Shown piece after piece: positions 6,668 to 38,703 of a DNA stretch of 64,000 bases. Both the position numbers and the translations under genes were made by a program. Positions within the stretch are counted from its first letter, which is position 1; each line of letters opens with the position of its first letter. The notes beneath the pieces were generated by a model, which worked only from the letters and a program-made list of their open reading frames with translations, ran no database searches and was not told the DNA's origin. This DNA is from Patescibacteria group bacterium (GTDB taxonomy: Bacteria > Patescibacteriota > Minisyncoccia > Phycocordibacterales > SBAW01): positions 94,608-158,607 of the forward strand of contig JACOWS010000002.1 in NCBI GenBank assembly GCA_016176685.1. The letters run 5' to 3'.

Positions 6668-6817
6668 TGCACCTTTTTGCCTCTAAGGAGGCCTATATAA
6701 TACGCGCGCAGTGTAGCAGAGGTCTCAAGAAAAGTCATGCATGCGACTTTGTACTAAGGCGGGTTTTATACCCAACCAAAAAAATATTTTTGCAGTATTC
6801 TGTATTACAATAGGTGT

Positions 6818-7171
6818 ATGGGTGAAATCTCACATCATCTTAAGGAGGTGCGTCCGTGGGGCTACTTCGAGCGCTTTACGCTTAACGAACCTTGCACGGT
6901 AAAAATAATCACCCTCGACCCCGACCAGGAACTTTCCCTGCAGCAACATGAACACCGCGACGAAGAGTGGCGCATACTGCATGGATCCGGCACCGTAAGC
7001 ATAAACGGTGTTGATACGGCCGTAGGACCTGGGGGCGAATTTAAGGTGCTGCGCGGAGAGCGTCACCGCGTTGCAAGCGGCTCTGACGGACTAGTATTCC
7101 TTGAGATATCGTTCGGACAGTTTGATGAAAAGGACATTACCCGACTAGAGGATAAATACGGGAGGAAATGA
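6818..7171 (+). CDS. standalone cupin, ManC-C-terminal/PMI type II-like
   Basis: 117 aa. RPWGYFE...LSLQQHEHRDEEWRILHGSG...LEISFG cupin-2 signature. Confidence 0.75.
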   Translation: MGEISHHLKEVRPWGYFERFTLNEPCTVKIITLDPDQELSLQQHEHRDEEWRILHGSGTVSINGVDTAVGPGGEFKVLRGERHRVASGSDGLVFLEISFGQFDEKDITRLEDKYGRK

Positions 7172-8337: not shown

Positions 8338-8354
8338 ACGTATACTTATTCCAT

Positions 8355-10295
8355 ATGTACGTCATACGCAGAAGCTCGCACAACCCTATCATCGCCCCTC
8401 TGACCGACAAGTCGTGGGAGGCGCGCGGCACTTTTAACCCCTGCCCCACCAAAAAAGGCACCATAACGCATGTGCTCTACCGAGCCTTGGGCCTGCCCGA
8501 TGCTCTTATGACCCCTGCCGGCATTTCAACCATCGGCAAAGCGCTTTCGCTCGATGGCAAGCACTTTCAAAACAGACGGCAGTTTATCATCCCGGAAGAG
8601 CCGTGGGAAAAGTATGGCTGTGAGGACCCGCGGGTAACCTATTTTGAAGGAAAGTATTATATTTTTTATACTGCGCTTGGCGGCCAGCCCTTTGGCCCGG
8701 GCAATATCAAAGTAGCGTGCGCCGTATCAAAAGACCTGGAGACGGTAACCGAGCGACACTTGGTGACCCCATTTAACGCTAAAGCCATGGCACTCTTTCC
8801 CGAGCGCATTGGCGGCCCTGGCCGGGCAGGCAAAATAACGGTCATTGTGACCACCCACACCGACGAGCCGCCGGCCAAAATAGCCATTGCGCAGTGCGAC
8901 CGCATTGAAGAGCTGTGGGACCTCTCCTTTTGGGAGAAGTGGCACAGCGAGCTCGACGAGCACACTATAAATCCTCTGCGTTTCGATCACGACCATGTCG
9001 AGGTTGGCTCCCCGCCTATCAAAACAAAAGAGGGGTGGCTCTTATTTTACTCCTACATTCAAAACTACTTTGGCGGGGGTGAGCGGGTGTTTGGTATTGA
9101 AGCGATGCTCTTAAATCTGACCGACCCGCACCAGATTGTCGGTAAAACCAATGGGCCCATTATGGTGCCCGAAGATATGTATGAAAAGTACGGCATAGTG
9201 CCTAACGTCGTTTTTCCTTCCGGAGCATTGCTGCAAAAAAACGACCGGGTGGACATTTACTACGGCGGCGCCGACACGGTGTGTGCGCGCGCCTCACTCA
9301 ACCTACCAGACCTTATAGCCGCGCTTATTCCGCAAAAGCGGGTGGAGCTTGCGGTGCGCGCTAAAGAAAACCCCATCATAGAACCAAATCCCGAGCACCC
9401 GTGGGAAAAGAATGCGACTTTTAATGCGGGCGCTATAGACCTCGGCGGTTCGGTGCACTTGCTGTACCGCGCGATGGGCGACGACAACACCTCGGTCTTG
9501 GGGTATGCGTCAAGCAAAAATGGCATTACATTTAGCGAGCGCTCCAAGAGGCCGGCGTACATCCCGCGTGAAGAGTTTGAAAAGAAGCACGGATCGCCCA
9601 CCGGAAACTCCGGCTGTGAGGACCCGCGCATTACAAAAATAGGCGGCACTCTCTATATGACCTACACCGCCTTCGACGGCGTACACCCCACCCGCGTGGC
9701 GCTTACCACCATTACAGCCAGAGACTTTCTCGCCAAACGTTGGGATAAATGGAGTAAACCAATTTTAACCACGCCGGAGAATGTCAACGACAAAGACATG
9801 TGCCTCCTGCCCGAGAAAGTGCGCGGGCAGTATATGCTCTTCCACCGCATTGACCCGATGATCTGCGCCGATTTTTTGAACACGCTCGACTTTAGCAAAA
9901 GCAAGCTCACCCGCTGTATCGAGATCATGGGCCCCAGGCCGGGCATGTGGGACTCTCAAAAGATAGGCATTGCCGGGCCGCCTATAAAAACTAAAAAGGG
10001 GTGGCTCCTCATTTACCACGGCGTTTCCAAAACAAACACCTACCGGCTCGGTGCGGTACTTTTGGACCTTAAAAACCCGTCTATTGTGCTTTCCCGCAGT
10101 GTCGACACCATTTTTGAGCCGCTGGAAGAGTACGAGCGCGTGGGGTTGGTGCGCAATGCGGTGTTTTCCTGCGGGCAAGTGGTGCGCGGTGACACGCTCT
10201 ATATTTACTACGGCGGGGCCGACACGGTGCTGGGGGTTGCAAAAGTGTCGCTCAAAAAACTCCTCAAAATTTTACTGCCGGACAATTTGGCATAA
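8355..10295 (+). CDS. tandem double GH130 glycoside phosphorylase
   Basis: 646 aa with two complete GH130 repeats. NPIIAPL...GTFNPC...LYRALG at the start and NPIIEPNPEHPWEKNATFNAGAIDLGGSVHLLYRAMG from residue ~330. Confidence 0.85.
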   Translation: MYVIRRSSHNPIIAPLTDKSWEARGTFNPCPTKKGTITHVLYRALGLPDALMTPAGISTIGKALSLDGKHFQNRRQFIIPEEPWEKYGCEDPRVTYFEGKYYIFYTALGGQPFGPGNIKVACAVSKDLETVTERHLVTPFNAKAMALFPERIGGPGRAGKITVIVTTHTDEPPAKIAIAQCDRIEELWDLSFWEKWHSELDEHTINPLRFDHDHVEVGSPPIKTKEGWLLFYSYIQNYFGGGERVFGIEAMLLNLTDPHQIVGKTNGPIMVPEDMYEKYGIVPNVVFPSGALLQKNDRVDIYYGGADTVCARASLNLPDLIAALIPQKRVELAVRAKENPIIEPNPEHPWEKNATFNAGAIDLGGSVHLLYRAMGDDNTSVLGYASSKNGITFSERSKRPAYIPREEFEKKHGSPTGNSGCEDPRITKIGGTLYMTYTAFDGVHPTRVALTTITARDFLAKRWDKWSKPILTTPENVNDKDMCLLPEKVRGQYMLFHRIDPMICADFLNTLDFSKSKLTRCIEIMGPRPGMWDSQKIGIAGPPIKTKKGWLLIYHGVSKTNTYRLGAVLLDLKNPSIVLSRSVDTIFEPLEEYERVGLVRNAVFSCGQVVRGDTLYIYYGGADTVLGVAKVSLKKLLKILLPDNLA

Positions 10296-10298
10296 GGT

Positions 10299-11066
10299 AT
10301 GCAGGCCCGCCCAAAACTAGTGGTGTTCGACCTTGATGGCACGTTGGTTGAAAGCAAACAGCCGATGTCGGCACAGATGGGCGAATTGGTTGGAGAGCTC
10401 CTGCAAATGATGCCGGTGGCGGTTATGTCCGGCGCGGCCTTCCATCAGTTTGAACGGCAATTTTTGCCGGCGCTCCCCGAGCAAGCGCGGTTTGAGCGGC
10501 TATACCTCTTTCCCACTAACGCGGCGGTATGCTACATACACAAAGACGGTGGGTGGCAAACCGCTTATGACCACTCGCTTACCATTATAGAAAAGAGTCG
10601 TATCTTGCAAGCGCTTAAAGAAGCCCGCGCGGAAACCGGCCTTGCCGTGGTACCGGAGTACAACCCAAAGTGGGGCGAACAGGAGGAGGACCGCGGCACA
10701 CAAATCACCTTCTCGGCTCTTGGCCAACGCGCCCCGGTGGGAGAAAAGAAAAGGTGGGATCCGACGAAGGAAAAGCGTTTGCCTTTGTATAAAGCGCTTG
10801 TGCGGCGGCTGCCAGATTTTTCCGTAGGGCTCAACGCGACAACCTCGATAGACATCACACGCAAAGGAATAAGCAAAGCGTACGGGGTGCGGCGCCTTAT
10901 AGAGATGACCGACATTTCCGTTTCCGAAATGCTCTATATCGGCGACGCCCTCAAAGAGGGCGGCAACGACGCCGTGGTTAAAGAGACGGGTATCCGCACC
11001 CAGGAGGTCTTTGGCCCGGAGGAGGCGGCTATTATTATACAAGACCTGCTCAACCGCGCACACTAG
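10299..11066 (+). CDS. HAD-superfamily phosphomannomutase of the eukaryotic PMM type
   Basis: 255 aa. FDLDGTL, FPTNAAVCYIHKDGGW, SIDITRKGISKAYG, YIGDALKEGGNDAVV align with PMM1/2 motifs (FDVDGTL, FPENGLVAYKDGK, SFDVFPxGWDKxY, FFGDKTMPGGNDHEI). Confidence 0.7.
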   Translation: MQARPKLVVFDLDGTLVESKQPMSAQMGELVGELLQMMPVAVMSGAAFHQFERQFLPALPEQARFERLYLFPTNAAVCYIHKDGGWQTAYDHSLTIIEKSRILQALKEARAETGLAVVPEYNPKWGEQEEDRGTQITFSALGQRAPVGEKKRWDPTKEKRLPLYKALVRRLPDFSVGLNATTSIDITRKGISKAYGVRRLIEMTDISVSEMLYIGDALKEGGNDAVVKETGIRTQEVFGPEEAAIIIQDLLNRAH

Positions 11067-11087: not shown

Positions 11088-11540
11088 TTAGCGACTACCA
11101 AAGAAGGAAAAGAAGTTTGAAAACCAGTGCGAGACATTGCCGGGGAGACTGTAAGTAAAAAAGTAAAAATCTTGCCACACCCCCGCCCGTGCACTGACAC
11201 CGGCGCCGCTGGAGGTTGCTACAAATACCTGCACCGACTTGTCGCTGGGGGAAATAGTTTTTATTACTGACTCCTTGTGTACTACCCCCCCTGCCTCTGT
11301 TTGTACCTCGACTTCTACCACGCCGCTACCCGCGTTTGTGTTGAGCGTATTTTTTATTTCTACCGAGGCGCTCCCCGACTCGGAGTAGGCACTGCCGCTG
11401 CCGCCGACCTGTATACCGCCGGTTGAAACTTCCGAAGAGCTGTAGGTGGTCAACGCCAACCCGCCGCCCCCCGCAAAAGCAAGCGCAAAGAGCGGGTGAA
11501 GGGACAGAAGTATGCTTATGCCGGTAACGAAGTATTTCAT
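11088..11540 (-). CDS. small secreted Gly/Ser-rich protein
   Basis: ORF 11088..11570. Signal peptide MKYFVTGISILLSLHPLFALAFA. Shares a V..NT.NTNAG-like repeat flavour with the neighbouring giant protein. 13-nt gap to the next gene. Confidence 0.5.
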   Translation of the reverse strand: MKYFVTGISILLSLHPLFALAFAGGGGLALTTYSSSEVSTGGIQVGGSGSAYSESGSASVEIKNTLNTNAGSGVVEVEVQTEAGGVVHKESVIKTISPSDKSVQVFVATSSGAGVSARAGVWQDFYFFTYSLPGNVSHWFSNFFSFFGSR

Positions 11541-11583
11541 GGTGAGTACAGTACCAAGCACTTGGTACAAAAGGAAGACGGCT

Positions 11584-14500
11584 CTAGAGACCGCCGAGTA
11601 GGCCCTTGAGCACAGAGAACCACCCTGCCTTTTTGGGCGCAGGCGCTTGCTCTACGTCCGGGGCCAATGGCGCCAAAAAGGCGCCCGATGGCGGAACACT
11701 TTTAGGCGTTTTTGGTTCTGACTTTGGTGCGCTCGGCGCCGCGCTATGTACCGCAGCCGCAGCGGCAACCTGCGGCGCCGGTGCGCCAACCACTATAGGC
11801 GCCTTGCCGCCGCAGGCGAGCTGGTTTATTTTGCTCTGCGTCATTGAGTACACTCCTCCGGTGGGGGTCTTGAGCCCTAGCGGGGTCAGAACCTCGGCGG
11901 CATACTTTTGCTGAAATGCATTGACTGCCGCCGCGGTTAATGGCCCGTAGTAGCCGGTGGTCGGCAGGTGTGCATTTTGATGTGCGTTGAGAAAGGCCTG
12001 CAGATTGACCACCTCGGCACGGTTGTTTTTCCTACTACGGGACATAAAGCTGGTAAGGAGCGGCTTGCAATCTACTTCATCATCATCGGCAATCGCAACT
12101 GTGGAAGTACCGAGTACCTCTCCCGCTTCTGTAAACTCTACCTCGCTTGACGCCTCAACCGGCGTAAAGGGGTTGCCGACAACCGGGTGGTTGCGCATAC
12201 CGGTAACGCGGGCGACATTGCGATATATGCCCGGCTTGGTGCTGGTGCCAAACGCTATTGAGTACGAGAGGGTAATGAGGTCGGCCGGTGCCACGGTCTC
12301 GAGGTCCCACGAGCGCGCGTACATAACGCCGCCCGAGGGGTCGTAGAGCGTGTCGGTGAGCAAGCCGTGGTACAGAGCGCCCGCGCTGGTATTGTTTTCA
12401 ATAACTACCTGGTAGTCGACCATCGTGGGGGCGGTGGTTGTGCCTATACTTAGGGTCTTTTTAACCGTGATTTTTGGGTCTGGCGTTGCGCTGTATGTAC
12501 CGTTTGCGGTTATGCCGGCAATGAGTCCGCCACCACCGCCACCGCCTCCACCACCTCCTCCTCCGCCCCCACCGCCATTATTGACGACGGGTGCCGGCGA
12601 AGTGACATCTACTGTAACCACGGTAAATCCCGCCGTGTCTCCGCCTTCAACTGTAGCAGTCAGAGGGATAGTCATTGATGTGCCCGCCGGTGTATCGCCC
12701 ACCTCTGCCGTATAGGTAAACGTGCGCGTCTCGCCCCGAGCCACCCTGCCCAAGTTCCACTTCTTGCCGTTGTCGGTATCCGTTGCTCCGCTATCGGCGG
12801 CAAAGGTAAGCAAATTTTTGTCAAAGTCGGCCTTTAGCGCCACATCCTCCGCGTCGGCATCGCCGCTGTTTGTAACGGTAAAGCGGTACTCCACCGTGGA
12901 GCCCGGCAAGACCGCCCTGGTGGCGTTGGTAAAGGCCTCGAGAGAAAGGTCGGATTGTCCAAAAGCGATATCGCCGCTCCAGTCGCCAAAGATGTTAAAG
13001 ACGGCAAATATCCAGTTGCGCCCGACTATGTTGGTGTTGATGAGGTTTATAACATTGGCTACCGCGTAGGCATTGCCGGTATTGATATATCCGGTACCGT
13101 CTTCTGTCAGAGTTTCGTTTGCGCCAGTTTCTGCAGAGACGTCCACATTGTTTTCAACCACGGCAACATTGGTAGATGATGCTAGGAAGTGCGAGGAGTT
13201 GTAGCAGTTGGAGACGGGTCCCAACTTTTCTTTACAATTAGCATCAGGAGCTTCAGGCAACTCTACCCCGCTGTTGTCACTGGTGACCAAAATAACTGTT
13301 GAGGTGCTGTTTCCCTCGGAGTTCTCCGGAAGTGCCACCCACGAGAGCCCCGCGGGCAGGCCGGTAACATTGCCGCTCCACTCGCCCGAAACGCGGAAGA
13401 AGAAGAATGCCGAGGTACCGCCAAAGTAGCTCCCGTTGGCGTCGGTAAAGGTAGTGGCCGAGCTGTAGGCGTCGCCTGTTTCAACTTCGCCATGACCAAG
13501 ACCCGTGGTGGTAGCCACATTCTCGCCTGTCTCGGCACTTGCGGTAGTGGTACCGACAAAGTTTACATCGTTGGTGTTATTAACCCCGTAGGTGCTCGCG
13601 TTCATCGCCGGGGCAGAGCCGCCGTGGGCAAAAAGCTTCCCGAAGAAGTCGGCATTGGGCAGGGTGATGTTGCCCGCCAAGCTGCCAAAGTTGTTAAACG
13701 AGACAAGCAGGTAGCTTGAGTTGATGATGTTGGTGTTGACCACGTTAAGCACGTTGGCCGCGGCATAGGCGTCGCCGGTGTTTATAGAAGCACCGCCGCT
13801 CTCGGTTGAGGAAGCCACATTCTCCCCCGTTGAAGCGCGCACCAGGACGCTGTTGGTTACGGTGGCGGTGTTGTCGTTTACCACGTTAAGCTCGCTGGCA
13901 TTGAGGCAGGTTAAGAGGGTGCACTGCGGCTCGCCGGTTGTCTCGTTGACCGTTTGGGACGCGCCCGCCTCGCCGTCAAAGAAATAGGAGAGGTTGAAGT
14001 CGCGCAGGTCAAACCCGCCGCCGAAAAGCTGATTCAAAAAGAGGATGAGCCCGTAGGAGTTGAAGATGTTGGTGTTGACGAGGTTTATGACATTGGATGT
14101 TGCGGCGGCGTTGCCGGTATCAATGGTCGAGGTGGCTACCCCTCCATCGGCCATGTTCTCGCCCGTTGTCGCCAAGGTCTCGGACTCGCTCCCCAGCTCG
14201 GCCTCGTTTGTGGTAGAGGCGGTAAGGTTGGAGGAATTCATTTCCTCTCCCGGCGCGTCGCACAGCTCATCCGAGTCTTCCGAGCAGGTGTCTGCAACAT
14301 TTATAATGTTGGTGTTAAGCTCGTTGTCGACGGTTGTCGAAGCGGTGGCATCACCGGTGACTATCTCGCCGCCCACAAGACCGCCCGTGCCGTCGGTGGA
14401 GGTGGCTATGGTGGTGTTTAATTCGTCCGGCAGTATTTCATCGGTACTGGTGGCTGTGGTTGTAGGAGTGGAGGTAGCCACTGGAGCCGGCTCATCCGCG

Positions 14501-14724
14501 GGAGGTGGCGGCAGTTCGCAGGAATCACCGTTCCAGGAGCCGCCGTCTGTAGTGCACTGCACATCGGCGCATGGCTCGGCATCTTGCTCGCCCGGCACAT
14601 TTGCGCACACGTCAACCGGAGGTGGAGCTTCTTCAGCCCGTACGACGATAGACCCGGCCCCGGCCGCAAAGATGAGAAAAAGGCCCGTCCATAGAAAGTA
14701 GCGCGATGCAGAGGATATGGTCAT
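11584..14724 (-). CDS. giant secreted surface protein: repeat modules + DUF11/CARDB-like domain + Gly18 linker + C-terminal peptidoglycan-binding (PG_binding_1-like) domain
   Basis: 1046 aa. Signal peptide. At least five copies of module TGEN.A....G.A.I.TGDAYA.ANV(I/L)N.VNTNI..S. Domain TVEYRFTVTNSGDADAEDVALKADF. Run of 18 Gly. C-terminus AEVVNLQAFLNAHQ...TGYYGPLTAAAVNAFQQKY typical of the PG-binding domain. Confidence 0.85.
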   Translation of the reverse strand: MTISSASRYFLWTGLFLIFAAGAGSIVVRAEEAPPPVDVCANVPGEQDAEPCADVQCTTDGGSWNGDSCELPPPPADEPAPVATSTPTTTATSTDEILPDELNTTIATSTDGTGGLVGGEIVTGDATASTTVDNELNTNIINVADTCSEDSDELCDAPGEEMNSSNLTASTTNEAELGSESETLATTGENMADGGVATSTIDTGNAAATSNVINLVNTNIFNSYGLILFLNQLFGGGFDLRDFNLSYFFDGEAGASQTVNETTGEPQCTLLTCLNASELNVVNDNTATVTNSVLVRASTGENVASSTESGGASINTGDAYAAANVLNVVNTNIINSSYLLVSFNNFGSLAGNITLPNADFFGKLFAHGGSAPAMNASTYGVNNTNDVNFVGTTTASAETGENVATTTGLGHGEVETGDAYSSATTFTDANGSYFGGTSAFFFFRVSGEWSGNVTGLPAGLSWVALPENSEGNSTSTVILVTSDNSGVELPEAPDANCKEKLGPVSNCYNSSHFLASSTNVAVVENNVDVSAETGANETLTEDGTGYINTGNAYAVANVINLINTNIVGRNWIFAVFNIFGDWSGDIAFGQSDLSLEAFTNATRAVLPGSTVEYRFTVTNSGDADAEDVALKADFDKNLLTFAADSGATDTDNGKKWNLGRVARGETRTFTYTAEVGDTPAGTSMTIPLTATVEGGDTAGFTVVTVDVTSPAPVVNNGGGGGGGGGGGGGGGGGLIAGITANGTYSATPDPKITVKKTLSIGTTTAPTMVDYQVVIENNTSAGALYHGLLTDTLYDPSGGVMYARSWDLETVAPADLITLSYSIAFGTSTKPGIYRNVARVTGMRNHPVVGNPFTPVEASSEVEFTEAGEVLGTSTVAIADDDEVDCKPLLTSFMSRSRKNNRAEVVNLQAFLNAHQNAHLPTTGYYGPLTAAAVNAFQQKYAAEVLTPLGLKTPTGGVYSMTQSKINQLACGGKAPIVVGAPAPQVAAAAAVHSAAPSAPKSEPKTPKSVPPSGAFLAPLAPDVEQAPAPKKAGWFSVLKGLLGGL

Positions 14725-14862
14725 GGGTAAATTCCTGTTATATAAGCGTATAAGCGAAGGCTGTCTTGCTGGTTTCCCTCTCTGAAGCCTCGTTCTTTTA
14801 TCATAAACAAGGCCTCATGAGAAGGAGGGAGTCAAAAATTGGCTCCCTTCCCTCAACTCGCA

Positions 14863-16974
14863 TTACAACTCGCAACTTGTCAGCACATTGAAGCCTCCGC
14901 CAGCATTGCAGGTGTCGGTGCCTCCCTGGCCGTTTATCTTGTCGTTGCCGCCCTGCGCCATGATGGAGTCGTCTCCGCCACCCGCATCGACCTTATTGTT
15001 GCCGTCGCCGGCGTCTATGGTGTCGGCACCGGAGCCAGTCGTAATTTTGTCGTTTCCTGCACCTGTGGTAACGGTATAGCCGCCATCGCCCGCAATGATA
15101 GTGTTGTTACCGAACATAGAGAAGAGTGTGCCGCCGCCGTTGCCGACAGTAACTTTGTCGTTGCCGGCACCGGCATCTACCACTGCATCGCCGTCGCCGA
15201 GGTCTACCTTATCGTTGCCGCTACCAAGGCAGACGATAAAGTTGCCGTCGCCGCCCGTAACCTTGTCGTTGCCGCCAAGGCCGACAAACATGGTCATGGA
15301 TGCGAGCACTACTTTGTCGTGTCCGGCAGTGCCGTTTTGGAGCGTGTAGCCAGCCGGTGCCACGCCCGGAGTCTCGCACGCCTCTGCCAAAGACGGCGGC
15401 GCGGGAGGTGTATTGTCCACCGTAACCTTCCAGGCATCACTCCACGGGCTCATGTTGCCGTCGTTATCAACCGCGCGCACGTGCCAATAGTAGACTCCCT
15501 CGGGCGTGCCGGGGGTCGGGATTTCAGACACAGCCAGTGGGCCGGAAGTGTATACCGGGGTCGTAAACGAGCCGTCCGGGTTTGTCGCGGAAGAGTTGGA
15601 CGATTGATAGCGATAGGTCATCGGCAATGCCGGGTCGGTGACATCTGTCCAGTCGATTTTGTCCAGCGCGGCCGATGTTAGCGTGCTGTTGTCTGCCGGA
15701 GAAAGGTGCACCGGCGCGGGGACGCATATCTTGTTCCACACAATAACGTACTTGTCGCCGGTGATGCCGGTGAAGCTCGGGACAGTGAGTGACACGGGCG
15801 CACCTGCCGCCTCAACAGGCGTGTCGCCGGTGCTGTAGCCAACTAACGCATATGGCTGGCCGGTACTGCAGTCGGCGCCAACTACCGCGCCGCCTGTTAC
15901 CTCGTAGGTACTGTAGTCGGCACCCGAGGTCATCTCGGAGGTGATTGCCTGGTAGGGAGTGGGGTCGCCGTTAAAGCCGTCGGCATCGAGGTCGTACGAG
16001 CCGCTTCCTGCGCCGATGTTTGCGGCATCCCAGGTTGCCGACATAGGGAATGCGGATGAGTCCGCACTCACTGCCGTTGCCTGTGCCCCGTCAATAAACT
16101 TGTTGATGGTGACGGTCACTGGAGGCATAGGGCCAGAAAGGAGCGAGAGGTTGTCGAATAGGAAGCCGTTACCCGCCGTATCCGGAGCCGCCCCGCCGCC
16201 AGTGCGGAAGATGAGGTCGTCGGTCGTGCGCGGACTCTGTTCCGCGGATGCTTCGGAGTCAAAGCGGAAGTAGTTTTCCCAAGTGGTTCCCGTATGTACC
16301 AACACGCCGTCTATGTAGATTTTGACAATGTCGTTGGAAGCACTATCAACATAGTCAATTACGAACTTTGCCGAATGCGTTGTCGAGCGAGAAAGGCCTG
16401 TTGCAACCGTTGTCGGCGAGAAAGTTGCCGGGTTACCTGTGCCTGGCGTGTCATAGAAGATAACGTCAATACCGCCCGGCTCGTCGGAGAATCCTAGATA
16501 GCTCATACGCGAGCCGTCGCCGCGGTCTGGAGATACAGATACAAAGAGTCCCGGCTGTTGGGTTGATTCTGTAGAGGCAAAGTCAAACTGTGCCTCAAAG
16601 TGCGGCTGCCTGGTGCCGCCGGACATACCGCCGCTGGTAGAATCAACCTCGCCCGCTTCGTCTATTAGAGATTTAGAAAAGGTCATGTCGCCAAAACAAC
16701 CGCTCGTGACTGCGTTGGAGATGCGCAATACCTTCGAGCCGAATTCTACGAAACCGTAGGAGTTTGATACAACCGCGTGGTCATATATTGCACAGCCGGA
16801 TCCTACACTGCCGAGGCTAGACCACCCGTCTTGTCCGTTGACCGTTCCAAGCGTAAAGCTCTCGAAGTCGGTGGCGGTGCTGTCGGCAGATGCGTAAGAG
16901 AACAAGGCAAGGGCGCCGAGCAGTATCGCTACTGTTGTGAGAGTTCCTGCGCCGATTGATACTGTTTTACTCAT
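14863..16974 (-). CDS. secreted surface protein: ConA/LamG-like N-domain, Ig/Fn3-like middle, C-terminal RTX-type Ca-binding GG.G.D repeats
   Basis: ORF 14863..17112. Probable start at MSKTVSIGAGTLTTVAILLGALALFSYASA (signal peptide). C-terminal run GGNDKVTGGDGN...GAGNDKVTVGNGG...GAGNDKITTGSGADTIDAGDGNNKVDAGGGDD. Confidence 0.8.
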   Translation of the reverse strand: MSKTVSIGAGTLTTVAILLGALALFSYASADSTATDFESFTLGTVNGQDGWSSLGSVGSGCAIYDHAVVSNSYGFVEFGSKVLRISNAVTSGCFGDMTFSKSLIDEAGEVDSTSGGMSGGTRQPHFEAQFDFASTESTQQPGLFVSVSPDRGDGSRMSYLGFSDEPGGIDVIFYDTPGTGNPATFSPTTVATGLSRSTTHSAKFVIDYVDSASNDIVKIYIDGVLVHTGTTWENYFRFDSEASAEQSPRTTDDLIFRTGGGAAPDTAGNGFLFDNLSLLSGPMPPVTVTINKFIDGAQATAVSADSSAFPMSATWDAANIGAGSGSYDLDADGFNGDPTPYQAITSEMTSGADYSTYEVTGGAVVGADCSTGQPYALVGYSTGDTPVEAAGAPVSLTVPSFTGITGDKYVIVWNKICVPAPVHLSPADNSTLTSAALDKIDWTDVTDPALPMTYRYQSSNSSATNPDGSFTTPVYTSGPLAVSEIPTPGTPEGVYYWHVRAVDNDGNMSPWSDAWKVTVDNTPPAPPSLAEACETPGVAPAGYTLQNGTAGHDKVVLASMTMFVGLGGNDKVTGGDGNFIVCLGSGNDKVDLGDGDAVVDAGAGNDKVTVGNGGGTLFSMFGNNTIIAGDGGYTVTTGAGNDKITTGSGADTIDAGDGNNKVDAGGGDDSIMAQGGNDKINGQGGTDTCNAGGGFNVLTSCEL

Positions 16975-17005
16975 AATTGGTTTTACTAAATTAATAACTT
17001 GTTTG

Positions 17006-17437
17006 TTAGCGGGTGCGCGCGGCGTCCCTGGTTGAACAGCTGGATGTAGAGAGTCTGTCGCACTGCGTCTCCGGCTCCGGCGCCGGCTCATCGCCCCCAT
17101 CATCGCCGCCATAGCTGGTGTCTGGGGTGTTGGTTGGCCCTATGTTGACCACATACACCTCCACGTGCTCGTCGCCGGTGATGACCGTGCCGCCCTCGTT
17201 GCCGCCGGAGTCGGCGGTGCCGCTCGTTGAGTTTGAAATGTTGCCTGCACTTGGATTAATCGGAGCCGGAGTAGGAGTGCTCGGGGGAGCGTCGGTGGAG
17301 GGGCTCCCCGACCCGCCGCGGTCGCGTACCGAAGCGTCCCTGACCTCTGCCTGCGCGCTAAAGGCAAGCACATACATCGCAAGAATGGCGAGCGCCACCG
17401 CGACTACTTTTGTGGTGACCGAAAGTGTTTTAGTCAT
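17006..17437 (-). CDS. small secreted Pro/Gly/Ser-rich protein
   Basis: 143 aa. Signal peptide with AQA|EV cleavage-like site. Low complexity. Confidence 0.5.
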   Translation of the reverse strand: MTKTLSVTTKVVAVALAILAMYVLAFSAQAEVRDASVRDRGGSGSPSTDAPPSTPTPAPINPSAGNISNSTSGTADSGGNEGGTVITGDEHVEVYVVNIGPTNTPDTSYGGDDGGDEPAPEPETQCDRLSTSSCSTRDAARTR

Positions 17438-17595
17438 ACTTTTTTATACTTAGCTGATAATACTGTTAATGGTATACCCTCGGGAGAACCTTCTTTATTC
17501 CCTCAAGAAAGCTCTCCCGAGGGCGGCACCTCGGCCAAAGCCTAGGTACCGACCCCCAGAAAGAACCTTCGCGAACCGAACAAACCGAAACGAAA

Positions 17596-18309
17596 CTAGA
17601 TGCGAACGCGAACCAGCGTCGTGTTGAGTATGTTGATGCTGCCTGCCTCTGAAGTTGCAACACCTGTTGTAACCCAGCCGCCGCCAGCACCTGCGCCGCC
17701 ATTACCACCATCGCCGGCCTCTGCGCCGCCGTTGTTGTTGTCGCCGTCGTCAACTTCAACCTCGCCGCCTGTGCCACCGTTGCCGCCTGTGCTACCTGCA
17801 GCATTGTTGTCGCCAGTGCGTGCCTTAGCGCGAGTAGTGTTGTCGATGGAATTGCACCCGCAATCCTCATTTTCTACCTTAACCTTGATCTCGGAGCTGT
17901 TCATGTCCTCTCCGTCGAGGTCAATGTCAACGTCAGTTGCGTTGAGCGAGTTTGCCGAGCCAGCCGCCGCCCCTGCGTCGCCCGTCTCTACCGTGCCGCC
18001 GATACCGGCGTTGCCGCCGTTGCCGCCCTCGCCGGCCAATGCGCCGCCGTTGTTGTTGTCGCCGTCGTCAACCTCGATGTCGCCGCCCGAGCCGCCTTCT
18101 CCGCCCCTGCTACCGCCAGCCACATTGCTTCCGGTTGAAGCGCGAGCCGAGGTTGTGTTGGTGATCGAGCCGGAGTTTTCAGTCTCTATCTTAATCGAGC
18201 TGCTGTTCATAGCCGCCGAAGCAGGCATCGCAATCGCCAAGAGCGAGAGCGCCAGTGCCGCCGTCATAGAGAGAGCAACCGCGCGATTAAGTGTTGTGCT
18301 TTGAGTCAT
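17596..18309 (-). CDS. secreted protein with internal tandem duplication (Gly/Asn-rich, acidic)
   Basis: 237 aa. Signal peptide. Two ~95-aa repeats (AR/KA.TG.N.AGGS.GG.GG.GG.IEVDDGDNNNGGA.AG.GGNGG). Repeat tail ETGDAGAAAGSANSLNATDVDID resembles the TGDAYAAANVLNVVNTNI module of the 1046-aa protein. Confidence 0.65.
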   Translation of the reverse strand: MTQSTTLNRAVALSMTAALALSLLAIAMPASAAMNSSSIKIETENSGSITNTTSARASTGSNVAGGSRGGEGGSGGDIEVDDGDNNNGGALAGEGGNGGNAGIGGTVETGDAGAAAGSANSLNATDVDIDLDGEDMNSSEIKVKVENEDCGCNSIDNTTRAKARTGDNNAAGSTGGNGGTGGEVEVDDGDNNNGGAEAGDGGNGGAGAGGGWVTTGVATSEAGSINILNTTLVRVRI

Positions 18310-18882
18310 ATCTGTATTCTGTATTAATCTTTCTAATGTATAAATCTGTCATCCCGCTTCCGTACGGACAAGCGTGAAGCCAGGCATCGACCCGCGAACT
18401 GGACTTTATTAAGTACAGCTCACAGGAGCACTCGCCTTCCCCCGCGGGTGGTGCTGTGAACTTTACTGCCTGCTGCTGTCTTCCTGTTGTGCTGGTGTCA
18501 AGGTTCGTCCGGGAAACAAAAACGCGCAACACCTTGAGCGATGTTACGCTTTGTCTGACGCTATTCTGTTGTACAGAGAAAACAACAGCATAATTTTATG
18601 CCGCTGGTTTCCCCGCACACTCGCAACCAACCTGGCGCTGTGTACCTGTCCATTATTGAACACCGCCCAGGCATGTCAACACTTTTTTCCACTATCGAGC
18701 ATACTACGATATACTATAGAGGAGCGTGTCAAACTTTTGTGCGGGCGCGGAAAAAACAGAAACACTACCGCGGTTGCGTACGCGGGCAAGACGGGCCCCA
18801 AACCCTGGGAAACCAGCGGAAAACTGGAGTTTTTGGGGCCCCTCTCGCCCGCTTACTTTTATGGTAAGCGGGCCCTGTAGTT

Positions 18883-19881
18883 TTAAGGAAGCGGCGGGAT
18901 AGGCAGGTTAAGTGCGGCGCACGTGAGGTTGTTTATTTTGCGCAGGGTTGTTTTGTACACGTAACCGGTTGCGGTTTGGTTACTTTGCAAGCCAAACGGC
19001 ACCCACGGCGCAAGTATCTCGCCTGCGTACTTAAGTTGGAATGCGCGCACAGCCGCATCGGTCAGCGGGCCGAAATAGCCGGTCACCGGCAACCCCGAGG
19101 CCATATGTTCGTTGAGAAATGTTTGCAGTTTTTTTACCTCTGCCGAGTCGTTTTGTTTGCCGCGGCGCAAGTAGGAGTTTAGGTAGGGGCCGCAGGATGC
19201 TTCCGCCGGAGCCGCAACTTCTGCCACGGTCGTGGTACCTAATACTTCCCCGCCGCCGACTTGATATCCCACCGAAAGTGGGCCGCCTATAACACCATTG
19301 CCACCTCCTCCGCTCGAAGACCCCGAGCTGGGAGAAGGGCTGCCCCCTCCAGTATTGGAAGGGGGGGGGTTTGAATCGTCTTCTCCACCCCCGGTGTCGG
19401 TATCGCCATCTTCCTCGCCAGTGTCTCCCGTATCGCCAGAATCGCCGGTGTCGCCGGTGGCCTGCTCGACACAGTTACCTTCGCCATCAAGCTCGTACCC
19501 TTCAGGGACAGCTTCTTGCACGCCATCTATGTTTGGGCACAGGTCGGTTGGTGCCGGCGGCGGCACAAACGCCGCGCAGTCCGGGTCGGCAAGGTCTATA
19601 AGGCCGTCCCCATCGTTGTCCAGGCCATCGCTACAGAGCGCCTGCGTATTTTCGGGCTCTGTGGGTGTGGCATCGTCGGGGCACGAGCCGCCATCCAACA
19701 CCGGTATAGGCGTGCCGATACCGCCAAGCTCGGTAAAGACGAGACACACGATATCGCCGCCGAGCGATGCCTGTGCCACGTGAGAATGTATAAAAAACGA
19801 ACCGGAAAAAAACAGCCCGAGCATCATACCCGCAAACATAGTTGCGCAATGCGCAGAAAAACCCAGAGTTTTCATAAGCAT
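18883..19881 (-). CDS. secreted acidic protein with thrombospondin-type-3-like Asp repeats and C-terminal peptidoglycan-binding domain
   Basis: 332 aa. Signal/TM at N-terminus. DGDGLIDLADPDC and (GDT)n acidic repeats. C-terminus AEVKKLQTFLNEHMASGLPVTGYFGPLTDAAVRAFQLKYAGE is homologous to the C-terminus of the 1046-aa protein. Confidence 0.7.
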   Translation of the reverse strand: MLMKTLGFSAHCATMFAGMMLGLFFSGSFFIHSHVAQASLGGDIVCLVFTELGGIGTPIPVLDGGSCPDDATPTEPENTQALCSDGLDNDGDGLIDLADPDCAAFVPPPAPTDLCPNIDGVQEAVPEGYELDGEGNCVEQATGDTGDSGDTGDTGEEDGDTDTGGGEDDSNPPPSNTGGGSPSPSSGSSSGGGGNGVIGGPLSVGYQVGGGEVLGTTTVAEVAAPAEASCGPYLNSYLRRGKQNDSAEVKKLQTFLNEHMASGLPVTGYFGPLTDAAVRAFQLKYAGEILAPWVPFGLQSNQTATGYVYKTTLRKINNLTCAALNLPIPPLP

Positions 19882-20015: not shown

Positions 20016-21113
20016 CTACCTCCTAGATTGTATAAGCGTGCGTATGGTGCGCCACAGCGTGGCGTCGCCCCGAGCGCTGTCGGGCAGATACCAGCCATCT
20101 CCCTCTTTGGCGCCGTACTTAAAGAACGCGACACCGATGAGATTTTCTGTTTTGAGCGCCTGGGTATAGTCGTTTATTAGGTGTGCGGTTGTGGGTTTAA
20201 CCCATATGGGCGGCTCCTCCCATACCCCGAGCGACGGGATAAAAACAACTTTTGGGTCAATGGCATAGATCGAGCGCGTGGCGCGAAGCATAACGGTTGA
20301 GACAAAGTCGGGAAAGTATTCGTCTACATTTGAGTAGGCATTGACCATCACTATGTCGGCAACATTGTTTGCAAAGCTGTTGCCCGGCCGGAAGAAGTCG
20401 TCGGCATAGTCATAAAAATACCAGCCGTTCATCCGTATCATCACCGGATGCGCCAAGTCGACACTCTTTACATCAAGGTAGGCCTGCCCGAGCTGTGCGG
20501 CCGAGAGAGCAAATTTTGTCTCCCACTGTGGGTCGGGCTGTATCCCGCCGGTGCCAAACGGGAATACGCCGCCGTCTTCGTTTGAAGTATCCCACGCATA
20601 CAAAGCCGGGTGGCCCTTCCATGCGGCAACCCACTGTTTAACCTTTTCGCTCTGCCACACTGGCTTTTGCCCAGGAATAAAGTTGTCGTCGCACGTATAG
20701 CCCCACTCCGCCTCCCCCGCTCCGGCATTGAGTATTACCTTGAGGCCGGCGTCTCGCGCGCTGTCGAGAAAGTACTGCACGTCTTCCCTACCGGCGCAGA
20801 TGTCGAAGTTGCCTTCAATGACGTCAAACCCGGCCTCTTTTATTGCCGAGAAGTCTTTTTGCGTAAGGCCGAAATGGTCGTATACCGCTTCCCCCACGTC
20901 TTTGAGTATGGCAAGAGTGCCGCCCTGCGGGGCGGGTGCGGTTGCAGAGAAGTTTGTTGTTGAAGCTTTTTCTGGCTCGCTCACGGATTGTACCTCTTGA
21001 GCGGTTTGCAAAGGAGCGTTTGTTGACGGCGGTGTACGGAGCGCGAGTGCGACAGCAAACACAACCACTGCTACTAGCGCCAGGGTGGTAATTAATTTAC
21101 TCTCGGTTGACAT
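20016..21113 (-). CDS. membrane-anchored TIM-barrel glycoside hydrolase (clan GH-A-like; family unresolved)
   Basis: 365 aa. N-terminal TM anchor. Candidate acid/base in AWDTSNEDGG and nucleophile in SLGVWEEPP. 17-nt overlap with the upstream CE4 gene. Confidence 0.6.
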   Translation of the reverse strand: MSTESKLITTLALVAVVVFAVALALRTPPSTNAPLQTAQEVQSVSEPEKASTTNFSATAPAPQGGTLAILKDVGEAVYDHFGLTQKDFSAIKEAGFDVIEGNFDICAGREDVQYFLDSARDAGLKVILNAGAGEAEWGYTCDDNFIPGQKPVWQSEKVKQWVAAWKGHPALYAWDTSNEDGGVFPFGTGGIQPDPQWETKFALSAAQLGQAYLDVKSVDLAHPVMIRMNGWYFYDYADDFFRPGNSFANNVADIVMVNAYSNVDEYFPDFVSTVMLRATRSIYAIDPKVVFIPSLGVWEEPPIWVKPTTAHLINDYTQALKTENLIGVAFFKYGAKEGDGWYLPDSARGDATLWRTIRTLIQSRR

Positions 21114-22341
21114 AGGAAGCGGAGTTGTAGTTTAGGCCCGCGCTCTCTCCATTACGGGCAAACAGCTCCACGTTGTCTATGAAGACACTGCCTTTTGTCC
21201 CTGGAGTCGCATACACCTGCACGGCGGCGGTCTTAACCAGCACCGAGGTCGGCTGGTACACATAGGAGCGGTCAATGACATTTTGGTTATAGAGCGCGCC
21301 TTGCCACTTGCCGGAGACCCAGGCGCCGCTCTCATCGTACTCGTCTATATAGAAGCCGACTTCTCCCGAAGTAAGATTTTGGCTATCGGTATAGACTCGC
21401 AGCCCGTAGGTTACCCCATGGGATACGGAGACTTTTTTTCCAAACAAGTGGCCGCCTTTTGCGGTGCCCACCACCTTGACGGTGTTTTTGGGTGTCGGGT
21501 AGCTGCCATTGTTGGCGGTATTGAGCTTCATGCTGTTTGTATTGTCGGTAATCCAGCCGGCAAGCTCCTCTTCGAAGCTCGGGTTTGCAATGAGGTTAAC
21601 GGACTGCATAAGCACTTTTGCCACCGTCTTTGTTCTAATGTTTTTTGCGTCCAGATAGTCAATAAAGCTCTGGAACGTAGCCGTCTCCCAGGAGTAGTCG
21701 TCCGTTGGATCAACCGCGGGCAAAATCTCGTGGAATACCAGCACCAGCCAGCCGTCTTGTGCCACCGCTTCGTCTACCCACACTTTTGCCTGTTCCAGAC
21801 TTGTTTGGTTTGTCACATAGCGCACATACAAAAGATATTTGTTGTACGGCCAAAAATTGAGCCCCTGGTTTGCGAAAGCGCGGTGAGAATTATATTTTTT
21901 GGCAATAGCTGAAAGCACAATATTGTCATAAGCGCCAAAAGGAGTCGCAAAGTCGGTTGGGGTGATACCTTTGGCCACAAAGTTGCTGTAGTCTTGGTTA
22001 AGTTCACTGCGAATGGTCGAAAGCGGCACCGTCGGCAGCTCTATGTGCATGAGGCCGTGTGCGGCTACCTCAAAGCCGGTGGTATGAAGGTTCTTTACCT
22101 GATTCCAGGTCATGTACCAATCACTTTGACCTACCAGCCCGGAGTTTATGTAGAAGGTGGCCGTTTGACCCGCGGCTTTCAATAGTTGTGCGGGAGTCTG
22201 GTACTGCGAAGGGTTGCCGTCATCGAACGTCAAGGTCACGGTGCCTGCGGCATGTGCGACGGCCCCGCCTATGACAAACAACATACTCACCACCGCAATG
22301 CGCAGAGTGTGGAGAGAAATATAATTGAAGGAGAGCTTCAT
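21097..22341 (-). CDS. polysaccharide deacetylase (CE4, NodB domain) with C-terminal CBM-like beta-sandwich
   Basis: ORF 21097..22473. Start at MKLSF...AVAHA signal peptide. TLTFDDGNPSQY and HGLMH NodB motifs. C-terminal NLIANPSFEEELAGW-type CBM4/9-like region. Confidence 0.8.
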   Translation of the reverse strand: MKLSFNYISLHTLRIAVVSMLFVIGGAVAHAAGTVTLTFDDGNPSQYQTPAQLLKAAGQTATFYINSGLVGQSDWYMTWNQVKNLHTTGFEVAAHGLMHIELPTVPLSTIRSELNQDYSNFVAKGITPTDFATPFGAYDNIVLSAIAKKYNSHRAFANQGLNFWPYNKYLLYVRYVTNQTSLEQAKVWVDEAVAQDGWLVLVFHEILPAVDPTDDYSWETATFQSFIDYLDAKNIRTKTVAKVLMQSVNLIANPSFEEELAGWITDNTNSMKLNTANNGSYPTPKNTVKVVGTAKGGHLFGKKVSVSHGVTYGLRVYTDSQNLTSGEVGFYIDEYDESGAWVSGKWQGALYNQNVIDRSYVYQPTSVLVKTAAVQVYATPGTKGSVFIDNVELFARNGESAGLNYNSASYVNRE

Positions 22342-22583
22342 ACTTTTAACTATAGTTACTAATCTAATAATAAATAGCTGTTGCGATGATAATTGATTAC
22401 GTATCGGCACAGCGTACAAACGACTAGACACGCGGACACGGCGGTGAGGGTTAAAAAGCCGATGCTTATCCATATATTGCCAGCACTCAAGAGCATATAT
22501 CCTGCGTACCCGCTCAAAGCAGCGGTACTGATTCCTGATATACCTGAACCGCCATTGAAATTAAACATATTATTAGTAGTATT

Positions 22584-23816
22584 TTAGCTTACTCGCGTAC
22601 CCCAACCGTCAGTATAGCCGACTAGCAGGAACAGTTTGCGACAGCGGGTAACCAGACCCTGCGGTACCAAACCGTTTTTTTGCGTCACGGTACGGGTTAA
22701 CATAGTAAAAATAAAAAACAGATACGAGCCGACCACCACCAGGGTGAGTATATTGCTGTACACAAACTCCGGGACCATACTCGCGCGTAGTACCCAGTCG
22801 TACCTATCCTTTTCCTTATAGAACCTCATAAGCCATAGTTGGAACAGGTACCAGACGGCAACTTGCAAAAGAGACAAGCCTATAATCCAGCGAGCGAGCT
22901 GCGGATGCGCCGCCCCGCCGCCAAAGAGCGTGAGCACTATAAGCAGGTCTATCATGAGCACGGTGGAAAAGAACACGCCGTGGCCCAGGAGGTCTTGCAA
23001 CACCGGGGCCGCGCGCTTGGCTTTTGCTATAACCGTAATGCCGCCGTAACTCCAGCGCGTTCTTTGCCGCCACAACACAGAAAAGCGCTCCGGCACTTTG
23101 GTCCACGCATAGGCGTTTATGGCTGCCTTCACGCGCCATCCGCGTGTTTTAAGCCGTGCCGTTATTTCGTAATCTTCTATCAGATGCTTTTCCGCAAAAC
23201 CCCCCGCCCCGAAAAGCGCGCGCGCTCTAAAAGCGGTGAGCATGCCGTGCATCACCAGCGGCCCGCCATAAAAACCCTCATCAGCCAAGCGTGTGGCGTT
23301 AAAACCAAGATATTCGAGCCCTTGCAAGCGCGTGAGTAAATTTTTATCTTTATTCAGCACCGCGCACTGGGAGCAGACTGCGCCAAGATTGTTGTCTGAC
23401 ATAAGTTCTGCAACCAGGTTTTGCACGGTGGTTGGACTAACGACCACATCATCGTCAAGTGTCAGAATAACATCTGGCATATACTCTTTTTTCCCTTCAA
23501 AGATATATTTGAGGGCATAATTGAGCGCCCCCGCTTTGAGTGCGTTGGCGGGTGTGCGAAGCAGGGTTATCCGGCTAGACACTCGAGCAATTTTTTCAAA
23601 AATTTGAAAGGGGTCTTTTTCGTCCCGCGGAGTGCAGTCGTCGACCACATATACCGCGAGGCGCGGATTCCACCGTATTAAATCTTCCACCAGAGTTACC
23701 GTGAGTTCTCCCGGTTTGTAGGTCGGGATTATGGCGCATACGCTTGTCTTCTCTACATCAAAAAATGATTTAGTGGCCCGAGTCGGCAGGATAAAATTTT
23801 TGAAATTGATTGCCAT
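22584..23816 (-). CDS. processive membrane GT2 synthase (cellulose/chitin/PNAG-synthase-like)
   Basis: 410 aa. VYVVDDCT, TLDDD, and the Q-x-x-R-W motif (WRQRTRW), followed by 4 TM helices. Confidence 0.85.
   Translation of the reverse strand: MAINFKNFILPTRATKSFFDVEKTSVCAIIPTYKPGELTVTLVEDLIRWNPRLAVYVVDDCTPRDEKDPFQIFEKIARVSSRITLLRTPANALKAGALNYALKYIFEGKKEYMPDVILTLDDDVVVSPTTVQNLVAELMSDNNLGAVCSQCAVLNKDKNLLTRLQGLEYLGFNATRLADEGFYGGPLVMHGMLTAFRARALFGAGGFAEKHLIEDYEITARLKTRGWRVKAAINAYAWTKVPERFSVLWRQRTRWSYGGITVIAKAKRAAPVLQDLLGHGVFFSTVLMIDLLIVLTLFGGGAAHPQLARWIIGLSLLQVAVWYLFQLWLMRFYKEKDRYDWVLRASMVPEFVYSNILTLVVVGSYLFFIFTMLTRTVTQKNGLVPQGLVTRCRKLFLLVGYTDGWGTRVS

Positions 23817-31824: not shown

Positions 31825-38703
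<6,879 letters not shown>

Follow-up and report, generated by a model that had tools for sequence, protein, structure and literature searches.

Six co-oriented genes on the minus strand, at positions 11088-19881 of a 64,000-nucleotide (nt) window from a Patescibacteria group bacterium (GenBank assembly GCA_016176685.1, contig JACOWS010000002.1, positions 94,608 to 158,607; the window is the whole stretch that was analysed, and all positions below refer to it), can be read as a conserved envelope operon of Parcubacteria that encodes a peptidoglycan-tethered, multi-subunit surface structure. We give this reading a probability of roughly 0.5. The genes are called p332, p237, p143, p749, p1046 and p160 after the lengths of their products in amino acids (aa), and these products are probably part of the outer surface of Parcubacteria cells. 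What is observed concerns domain content, secretion signals, paralogy, family size and synteny: signal peptides throughout, two PG_binding_1 domains, a CLIPPER stalk, a lectin-fold protein with RTX repeats and a gene order kept in about 80 loci together fit a wall-attached, secreted surface system.

A preliminary description of this DNA, made from the letters alone, had proposed six minus-strand genes with signal peptides, and both the coordinates of the open reading frames (ORFs) and the Sec-type N-termini are borne out for all six. Read along the minus strand, p332 (18883..19881) combines a signal peptide with a Cys motif, an acidic double-disulfide repeat, a Gly/Ser/Pro linker and a Cys-bracketed PG_binding_1 domain. 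It is followed by p237 (17596..18309; signal peptide and two module copies), p143 (17006..17437; signal peptide, Pro-rich linker, module-core hairpin, Pro-rich segment and Cys pair) and p749 (14863..16974; signal peptide, ConA-like head, middle beta domains and RTX beta-roll), then by p1046 (11584..14724), the proposed wall-tethered scaffold protein, and finally by p160 (11088..11540; signal peptide, degenerate module-core hairpin, Ser/Thr-rich stretch and aromatic amphipathic tail). Two starts deserve comment. The 749-aa ORF overlaps p143 and its signal peptide begins only at Met47 (MSKTV..., nt 16974), which makes nt 16974 the most likely start of the gene, and p160 probably starts at Met11 (MKYF..., nt 11540). 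All six N-termini consist of a basic n-region, a 12-residue hydrophobic core (1.9-2.7 on the Kyte-Doolittle scale) and an AxA-type site, and none of the six proteins has a further transmembrane-like segment beyond the signal peptide. The number of Cys residues in the mature part is even in every case (12, 8, 2, 2, 8 and 0). An LPXTG-type sorting signal is absent from all six, and the sortase signature TLxTC occurs in the window only as a chance TLLTC inside p1046. The composition of the array is unremarkable against the rest of the window.

The defining element of the array is a repeat module, most fully developed in p1046. The motif TG(D/N)A..A.ANV.N.VNTNI occupies the middle of a longer unit, of which p1046 carries four copies of about 85 aa in exact register (aa 160-244, 272-356, 372-456 and 506-590), joined by linkers, and additionally one partial copy (around aa 118-145); the register was set by laying the predicted secondary structure over the sequence. 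Together, these form a head encoded at 12955..14373 on the minus strand (partial M0, 14290-14373; M1, 13993-14247; M2, 13657-13911; M3, 13357-13611; M4, 12955-13209). Each module opens with (M/L/Y)N(S/A)S. A 21-residue strand follows and leads through a TGxN turn into two short strands; after a TGDA turn come an 11-residue strand with NTN at its end and, last, a very hydrophobic strand of 10 residues (e. g., YLLVSFNNFG or WIFAVFNIFG). In pairwise BLAST comparisons, M2 and M4 are 45% identical over 83 aa (E 2e-20), and M2 also matches M1 (E 5e-11) and M3 (E 5e-12); the score of 72 bits for M2 against M4 contrasts with at most 25 bits in 100 shuffles. A consensus drawn from 86 module instances in homologues reads ...NxS......TNxA...NxVxVxAxTGxNxA....GxAxIxTGxAYAxANVxNxVNTNI..S..L...FN..G...GDI, with G29, G46 and N59 invariant throughout. 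The repeat reported earlier is thus real and far beyond chance, but it amounts to four modules of about 85 aa and a partial one rather than to five or more of about 60 aa.

The module has no counterpart in the collections that were searched. No Pfam, NCBIfam or PHROGs model matches within the module regions, and module and full-family profiles find only peptidoglycan-binding domains among PDB sequences. An AlphaFold2 model of p1046 aa 95-590, based on an alignment of 82 sequences, is all-beta with a predicted local distance difference test score (pLDDT) of 84 (75-84 over five models) and a predicted template modelling score (pTM) of 0.80. With this model, Foldseek retrieves nothing better than E 2.9 among PDB chains and E 0.09 among BFVD models, an empty result that is meaningful because the same pipeline readily placed the head of p749 in the ConA-like fold (see below). 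The preliminary description had held the repeat to lie outside described families, and had named a match to a Pfam family or a pectate-lyase-like beta-helix as what would speak against this. The Pfam, NCBIfam, PDB-sequence and Foldseek searches all agree with it, and neither of the two was found: p1046, p237, p160 and p143 lack any Pfam match to a right-handed, pectate-lyase-like beta-helix, Foldseek gives no beta-helix match, and the strands of the head model are 10-21 residues long, which excludes a beta-helix for the p1046 head. We regard the module as a previously undescribed all-beta unit with a confidently predicted fold and without a solved relative.

Behind the head, p1046 is built like a tethered surface protein. 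Its order is signal peptide, Cys-rich acidic N-terminus, module head and two immunoglobulin-like (Ig) domains with a poly-Gly run between them, then PG_binding_1, a Pro/Ala linker and an amphipathic tail. The stalk (12190..12951, minus strand) comprises Ig1 (12643-12951), 17 Gly residues (12526-12576) and Ig2 (12190-12477). Ig1 (aa 592-694) belongs to the CLIPPER/DUF11 family (PF01345, 43 bits against a cut-off of 24.6); Ig2 has no Pfam match, yet is homologous to Ig1 (hhalign 97.5%). In Ig2, K756, D791 and N836 are kept in 79-81 of 82 sequences with a spacing that resembles K715/D748/N806 of PDB 9IFR, and in the solved CLIPPER domain this K/D/N triad forms an isopeptide bond (bioRxiv 10.1101/2025.04.25.650565). 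Judged by these residues, Ig2 is probably locked by a Lys-Asn isopeptide bond, while Ig1 has no conserved Lys/Asn pair. The 17 Gly codons are uninterrupted and the Gly runs of homologues are shorter; the run may be either a flexible hinge or a hotspot of slippage or assembly error.

The anchor region of p1046 (11587..12069, minus strand) consists of a Cys-bracketed PG_binding_1 domain (11812-12069), a Pro/Ala-rich linker and the C-terminal amphipathic tail KKAGWFSVLKGLLGGL (nt 11587-11634). Homologous peptidoglycan-binding domains had been suggested for two members of the array, and this holds: PF01471 scores 30.4 bits in p1046 and 32.5 bits in p332 (cut-off 23 bits), and an alignment of the two over 93 aa shows 53% identity (E 2e-30). 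In p332, this domain (aa 229-321, nt 18919-19197) follows an acidic double-disulfide repeat (aa 77-104, nt 19570-19653), and the protein matches NCBIfam NF033662 (45.3 bits against a cut-off of 41). With a promoter-like site at 19965-19938 and hairpins 3' of its stop codon, p332 is probably a transcription unit of its own. Tails like KKAGWFSVLKGLLGGL (for example, GLFGWIKGLF and GILGAVGSFFGLW) end most of those p1046-family members that extend past the peptidoglycan-binding domain, and an aromatic amphipathic tail likewise ends the p160 family (nt 11091-11168 in the window) and the closest p332 homologue (L005), with a shared pattern G-W/F-F-S-x-L/F-K-x-L/F-F.... A C-terminal amphipathic membrane anchor is familiar from PBP5 of E. 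coli, and by analogy the shared tail may be a membrane-surface anchor or an unrecognised sorting motif.

Relatives of the module recur among the smaller proteins. Run over the window, the module profile finds p237 (E 8e-12) and nothing outside this operon. The two copies in p237 (aa 33-130, nt 17920-18213; aa 135-237, nt 17599-17907) are 60% identical to each other and align with the module family at 97.5% and 96.5% in hhalign; in each, a Gly/Asn/Asp-rich insert is present and the last strand is missing. All 132 homologues of p237 are named 'hypothetical'. The p160 family (41 members) shows the pattern 'vSaSaxTGGNxAxxGGxVxTGdaSASv' between signal peptide and aromatic amphipathic C-terminal tail, and aligns, as a family, with the module core (hhalign 88%, P 3e-6); the degenerate core hairpin of the window's p160 lies at about nt 11334-11480. 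The earlier claim of related units in the small proteins therefore stands for p237, and for p160 at the level of the family profile though not by its own sequence. A link between p143 and the module, which that description had missed, appears at aa 63-99 (nt 17141-17251): here the p143 family, with a signal peptide, a Pro-rich linker and the pattern 'SGGNxGGxVTTGDExVxVxVVNxGPTN', matches weakly (hhalign 53%, P 1.4e-4). By these profile comparisons, three of the six proteins (p1046, p237 and p160) clearly appear to carry the module unit, and p143 may weakly be counted as a fourth carrier at the family level only.

The remaining large protein, p749, had been credited with ConA-like and RTX-type Ca repeats. 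The RTX part is confirmed by Pfam (PF00353, 41.6 bits against 23, E 1e-10, three stretches; found in 13 of 14 family members), and the roll (nt ~14866-15315) matches the RTX blocks of CyaA and lipases among PDB sequences. The ConA-like part is upheld by fold but not by Pfam, in which no lectin model matches the head (nt 16093-16974). Its AlphaFold2 model (pLDDT 87, pTM 0.84) gives 94 PDB matches at E <= 1e-3 in Foldseek (best E 4e-7, probability 1.0), including TtX122, calreticulin, lyases, legume lectins and the lectin module of S. sanguinis PilC. With ConA-like members such as PDB 5hca, 1wbl, 8q2a and 7oa7 it shares the jelly-roll (E 4e-7 to 1e-4) at 10-16% sequence identity. An RTX toxin or type I secreted protein was considered and rejected: p749 has a Sec-type signal peptide instead, NCBIfam RTX-toxin models reach 26-31 bits against cut-offs of 625-2000, and none of the neighbours scanned encodes type I secretion genes. 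The middle beta domains are conserved within the family; homologues of p749 bear other heads (beta-helix, Laminin_G_3 (LamG) or SpaA), with Laminin_G_3 found in a single homologue (L013) within a different head. The p749-type head domain itself is conserved throughout Patescibacteria (more than 1246 database matches, 55-74% identity, ~44 invariant residues, no Pfam entry) and stands alone (310-350 aa) or is fused to RTX, SpaA, FG-GAP, cohesin or fn3.

Both the proteins and their order are widely conserved. Full-length homologues of p1046 (33-65% identity) come from Parcubacteria, Paceibacterota, Minisyncoccia and Kaiserbacteria and are named at best 'peptidoglycan-binding' or 'DUF11 domain' protein. 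At 50% identity, the module profile retrieves 3143 clusters, of which 951 lie below 1e-30; among the 150 best, module stretches number four to six in nearly every case (nine in one). The motif spacing is conserved. Relatives are encoded by at least 205 GTDB species genomes, and the named lineages are all Parcubacteria-type; many titles of third-party-annotation metagenome-assembled genomes say 'Saccharibacteria', a label that could not be verified. About 80 loci keep the genes for p237, the big protein and p160 in this order and in one orientation. Among 81 loci, the gene directly 5' of the big one, on the same strand, is p237-like in 69-81; a p160-like gene is situated downstream or in between in about 55, and a p332-like wall-binding protein is encoded upstream in 28-63. 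The p143 family was found in 12 loci, always accompanying this operon, and the pair p143 and p749 is inserted as in the window in L036 and L023, whose six-gene order is identical to the window, and partly in L013, L027, L033 and L035. Given this conserved core with recurrent accessories, the window contains the complete form of an operon that is conserved though variable. In some genomes the operon is present twice, as on contigs CAZWFX010000002.1 (L006/L011) and CAZELA010000002.1 (L012/L014), with the two copies no more than about 15-20 kb apart.

Within p1046, the head modules are the most conserved part (pairwise identity 0.45-0.60, as compared to 0.37 for the Ig domains), and the invariant residues are exclusively Gly, Asn, Thr, Ala and Pro. 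Taken together, this points to a structural, self-interaction or self-assembly role rather than a catalytic or host-specific one, and the conservation of the distal head argues against a fast-evolving, host-specific adhesin tip.

For localisation, topology, co-assembly and function, we infer the following layout. On cells without an outer membrane, p1046 would be the scaffold, held at membrane and wall by its tail and PG_binding_1 domain, with the two CLIPPER Ig domains as a short stalk and the four-and-a-half-module beta head facing outward. The smaller p237, p143 and p160 would dock onto this head or extend it through the shared beta unit, with p160 additionally bearing a p1046-like C-terminal tail. 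The lectin-fold head of p749, stabilised by Ca2+ through its RTX roll, would add glycan binding, and p332 would be a second wall-bound component. The neighbouring polysaccharide genes, encoding a GT2 synthase and a deacetylase, also count in favour of this reading. Several points weigh against it. The window's own p160 is too degenerate to give a significant module match on its own, and its own p143 matches only weakly; the p1046 head is predicted to be self-contained (pTM 0.80), so that partner strands are not obviously needed; the stalk domains number just two; attachment of PG_binding_1 to the peptidoglycan of Parcubacteria is assumed; and the argument for co-assembly is solely one of paralogy and synteny. 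Of the modular wall-attached surface layer or adhesin system that had been proposed at the outset, secretion, anchors, stalk and synteny hold, while surface layer and adhesin are not separable by sequence.

The surface-layer (S-layer) version takes p1046, with p237 as co-subunit, to be the two-dimensional paracrystalline layer seen on ultra-small cells of the candidate phyla radiation (CPR), with PG_binding_1 in the role of SLH or CWB2. In monoderm bacteria, non-covalently wall-bound and S-layer proteins are held by SLH, CWB2, LysM or PG_binding_1 anchors, and the array resembles them in Sec secretion, the lack of LPXTG and sortase, a dedicated binding module and Ca2+-binding accessory repeats (here RTX and the acidic disulfide repeats). 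It differs in that the anchor combines PG_binding_1 with an amphipathic tail and that none of the known S-layer self-assembly domains is present. A mostly single-copy, syntenic and widespread gene with a wall-binding domain and a strongly conserved, self-similar head would suit such a layer, and no S-layer gene is known for these organisms, whose envelope is described in the literature as unresolved and of unknown composition (PMC5220378; PMC13293708). However, Pfam and NCBIfam searches at E <= 1 reveal no SLH, CWB2, SLAP or other S-layer domain, an Ig stalk locked by an isopeptide bond would rather be expected in fibrils and adhesins, and S-layer proteins usually diverge fast, whereas the p1046 head is 45-60% identical across classes. 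We consider an S-layer rather unlikely.

Similarly doubtful is a collection of independent host-attachment adhesins and lectins, which would share a domain by duplication and be clustered for co-regulation without forming a single assembly. The succession of signal peptide, head, Ig stalk and wall anchor is that of fibrillar adhesins, the p749 head resembles the S. sanguinis PilC lectin module and its family swaps heads, and an abundance of lectin and pectin-lyase surface proteins has been reported for CPR genomes (PMC5220378). Yet the putative binding head of p1046 is its most conserved and not its most variable part, hundreds of clusters share the same fixed 4.5-module architecture, a strict paralogue gene order would be unusual, and, apart from the p160 tail, the small paralogues are without an anchor. 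Measured by the features of fibrillar adhesins, p1046 has the signal peptide and the anchor, two stalk domains and a head of no known adhesive family. The closest described proteins, the CLIPPER fibrillar adhesins (bioRxiv 10.1101/2025.04.25.650565), likewise join a signal peptide, a distal head, a CnaA-like Ig stalk with the triad and a C-terminal anchor. In contrast to their long tandem arrays, p1046 has two stalk domains, of which Ig1 is without the triad, and its head is an undescribed four-module fold that is the most conserved part and is accompanied by small paralogues. The logic of signal peptide, head, Ig stalk and wall anchor is thus already known, while the previously undescribed parts are the head fold, the set of paralogues, the tail and the operon; a literature search turned up no relevant described Parcubacteria surface, S-layer or DUF11 protein.

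Sortase pili of Gram-positive bacteria combine a tip lectin or adhesin with backbone and base pilins. As in these, a lectin-type protein, isopeptide Ig domains and a wall-attached base occur in one cluster; the array differs in having neither LPXTG nor sortase signature, and its wall attachment would be non-covalent.

A matrix fibre in the manner of TasA/TapA or curli, in which p237 would polymerise on a wall-anchored p1046 nucleator together with exopolysaccharide genes, is quite improbable. TasA/TapA of Bacillus and CsgA/CsgB of curli are paralogous secreted subunits, one of them cell-anchored, encoded beside polysaccharide genes, and the array shares with them an operon of secreted paralogues with one beta unit between them and one anchored member. 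The Gly/Asn-rich turns (TGxN, TGDA, NTN), the missing last hydrophobic strand of the p237 modules and the GT2, deacetylase and putative glycosidase genes upstream could be accommodated as well. On the other hand, no sequence or profile relation to these systems exists (no Curlin, Fap or TasA/Peptidase_M73 match in Pfam and NCBIfam at E <= 1), the anchored p1046 is large, multi-domain and predicted to fold by itself with a compact monomeric head, no CsgG/E/F-like or SipW-like assembly or secretion factor was identified, and the polysaccharide genes are linked in just 13 of ~80 loci. Phage or other mobile cargo (a tail fibre, receptor-binding protein or wall-degrading toxin) is effectively refuted, given that the PHROGs matches to endolysin families that might suggest it are confined to the PG_binding_1 domain, that no catalytic domain, nearby phage gene, compositional anomaly or BFVD fold match was found and that chromosomal synteny is conserved beside housekeeping genes.

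The proposed envelope operon also contains structured non-coding sequence. Two conserved non-coding elements, both with GGGAAACCAGCG, lie in the spacer of 573 nt between p332 and p237. Element A (18514..18645, minus strand), a candidate leader or small RNA, and p237 behind it are faced by a sigma-70-like promoter (TTGACA-16-AATAAT, 18652..18679, minus strand; 11 of 12 consensus matches), and related loci have a GATAAT box at the same position. Within it, a hairpin P1 is followed by the motif GGGAAACCAGCGG (18601-18613) and a second hairpin, P2; an intrinsic terminator with a U-tract (18524-18549) comes last. P1 varies in sequence with its pairing preserved, the loop of P2 holds an AUG, and the 5' arm of the terminator, AGCGAA, repeats the AGCG of P2, which leaves room for a possible attenuator. 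The 13-nt motif stands 5' of p237-like genes in 28 of 60 loci. Most of 27 sequences have the three-hairpin layout, and 23 of them have all three including the terminator; the hairpins differ in length and were folded sequence by sequence, which favours finding hairpins. A leader peptide starting at the conserved AUG of P2 seems unlikely, as the frames, read by eye, differ in length and sequence.

Element B (18775..18861, either strand) is a hairpin of about 85 nt with GGGAAACCAGCGNAAAGCUG at its tip when read on the plus strand, and was analysed with RNAalifold and a covariance model (R1). Compensatory changes occur in 26 of 31 pairs, and the observed covariation was reached by none of 500 shuffles; 85% of the cells are paired, as compared to 72.5% in shuffles and 28-49% in slid controls. 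The covariance model gives 87 matches with one copy per locus (related loci L005-L058 and L085-L164). In an independent set of 83 metagenome contigs, picked solely by a 20-mer of element B, a p237-like gene adjoins the element in 53 of the 72 that were usable. The modelled orientation contains 165 A.C mismatches versus 114 G.U pairs, and these wobble counts lean to the operon strand, on which element B may be read. Its loop would then be complementary to the motif in the leaders, including that of element A. A third copy of the motif, GGGAAACCAGCAA (14766..14778, minus strand), lies within a hairpin 54 nt 5' of the p1046 start codon, and comparable copies are present 5' of the big gene in L039 and L041 and 5' of p143 in L009.

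Two further explanations for these repeats were rejected. An invertible promoter with inverted repeats does not agree with the single orientation in all loci, the separate covarying helix of each copy and the direct copies elsewhere in the operon, and a genomic repeat of the DNA-uptake type does not agree with just three copies in the 64 kb window, all within the operon. Rfam, with the signal recognition particle RNA and other known RNAs included, gave no match for elements A and B even at E <= 5, and no described RNA motif of this kind turned up in the literature. A more far-reaching version of our reading, in which the operon would encode the principal, lineage-defining surface of Parcubacteria (an S-layer or a fibrillar coat), with paralogues that complete or extend the head as a new principle of assembly and with two undescribed structured RNAs in control, whose common 13-nt motif would mark leaders within the operon as well, is speculative and would at present be a bet against the odds.

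As to the genomic surroundings, the region upstream of the operon (20016-23816, minus strand) encodes a GT2/chitin-synthase-like synthase, a polysaccharide deacetylase and a secreted 365-aa protein without Pfam match, and in 13 related loci a 63% identical GT2 gene again lies close to the operon. Downstream (5561-11066) lie a gene for a HAD/PMM-like phosphatase, two GH130 genes and a mannose-1-P guanylyltransferase-like gene. Relatives may encode a CAP-domain membrane protein (17 loci, e. g., L041:11312-12742) or a secreted subtilase S8 (13 loci, e. g., L064:9664-11562) just downstream of the big gene; neither gene is present in the window. Further away (31825-38703, minus strand), a single ORF of 2292 aa contains all RpoB (Rpb2) and then all RpoC (Rpb1) domains and is either an rpoB-rpoC fusion or the result of a missing stop between the two genes.

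Parcubacteria, which are ultra-small and uncultured, and their relatives make up a large share of bacterial diversity and are thought to live attached to other cells. A conserved, Sec-secreted and predicted wall-tethered set of proteins is a concrete candidate for the surface of their envelope, and the head of p749 represents a second large, unannotated domain found throughout Patescibacteria. The sequences described here could be used to define new Pfam families, to raise antibodies or design affinity handles with which uncultured cells may be sorted or imaged, and to guide targeted metaproteomic searches and tests of host attachment. Finally, the two linked RNA-like elements would offer a possible regulatory handle in organisms for which hardly any regulation is known.

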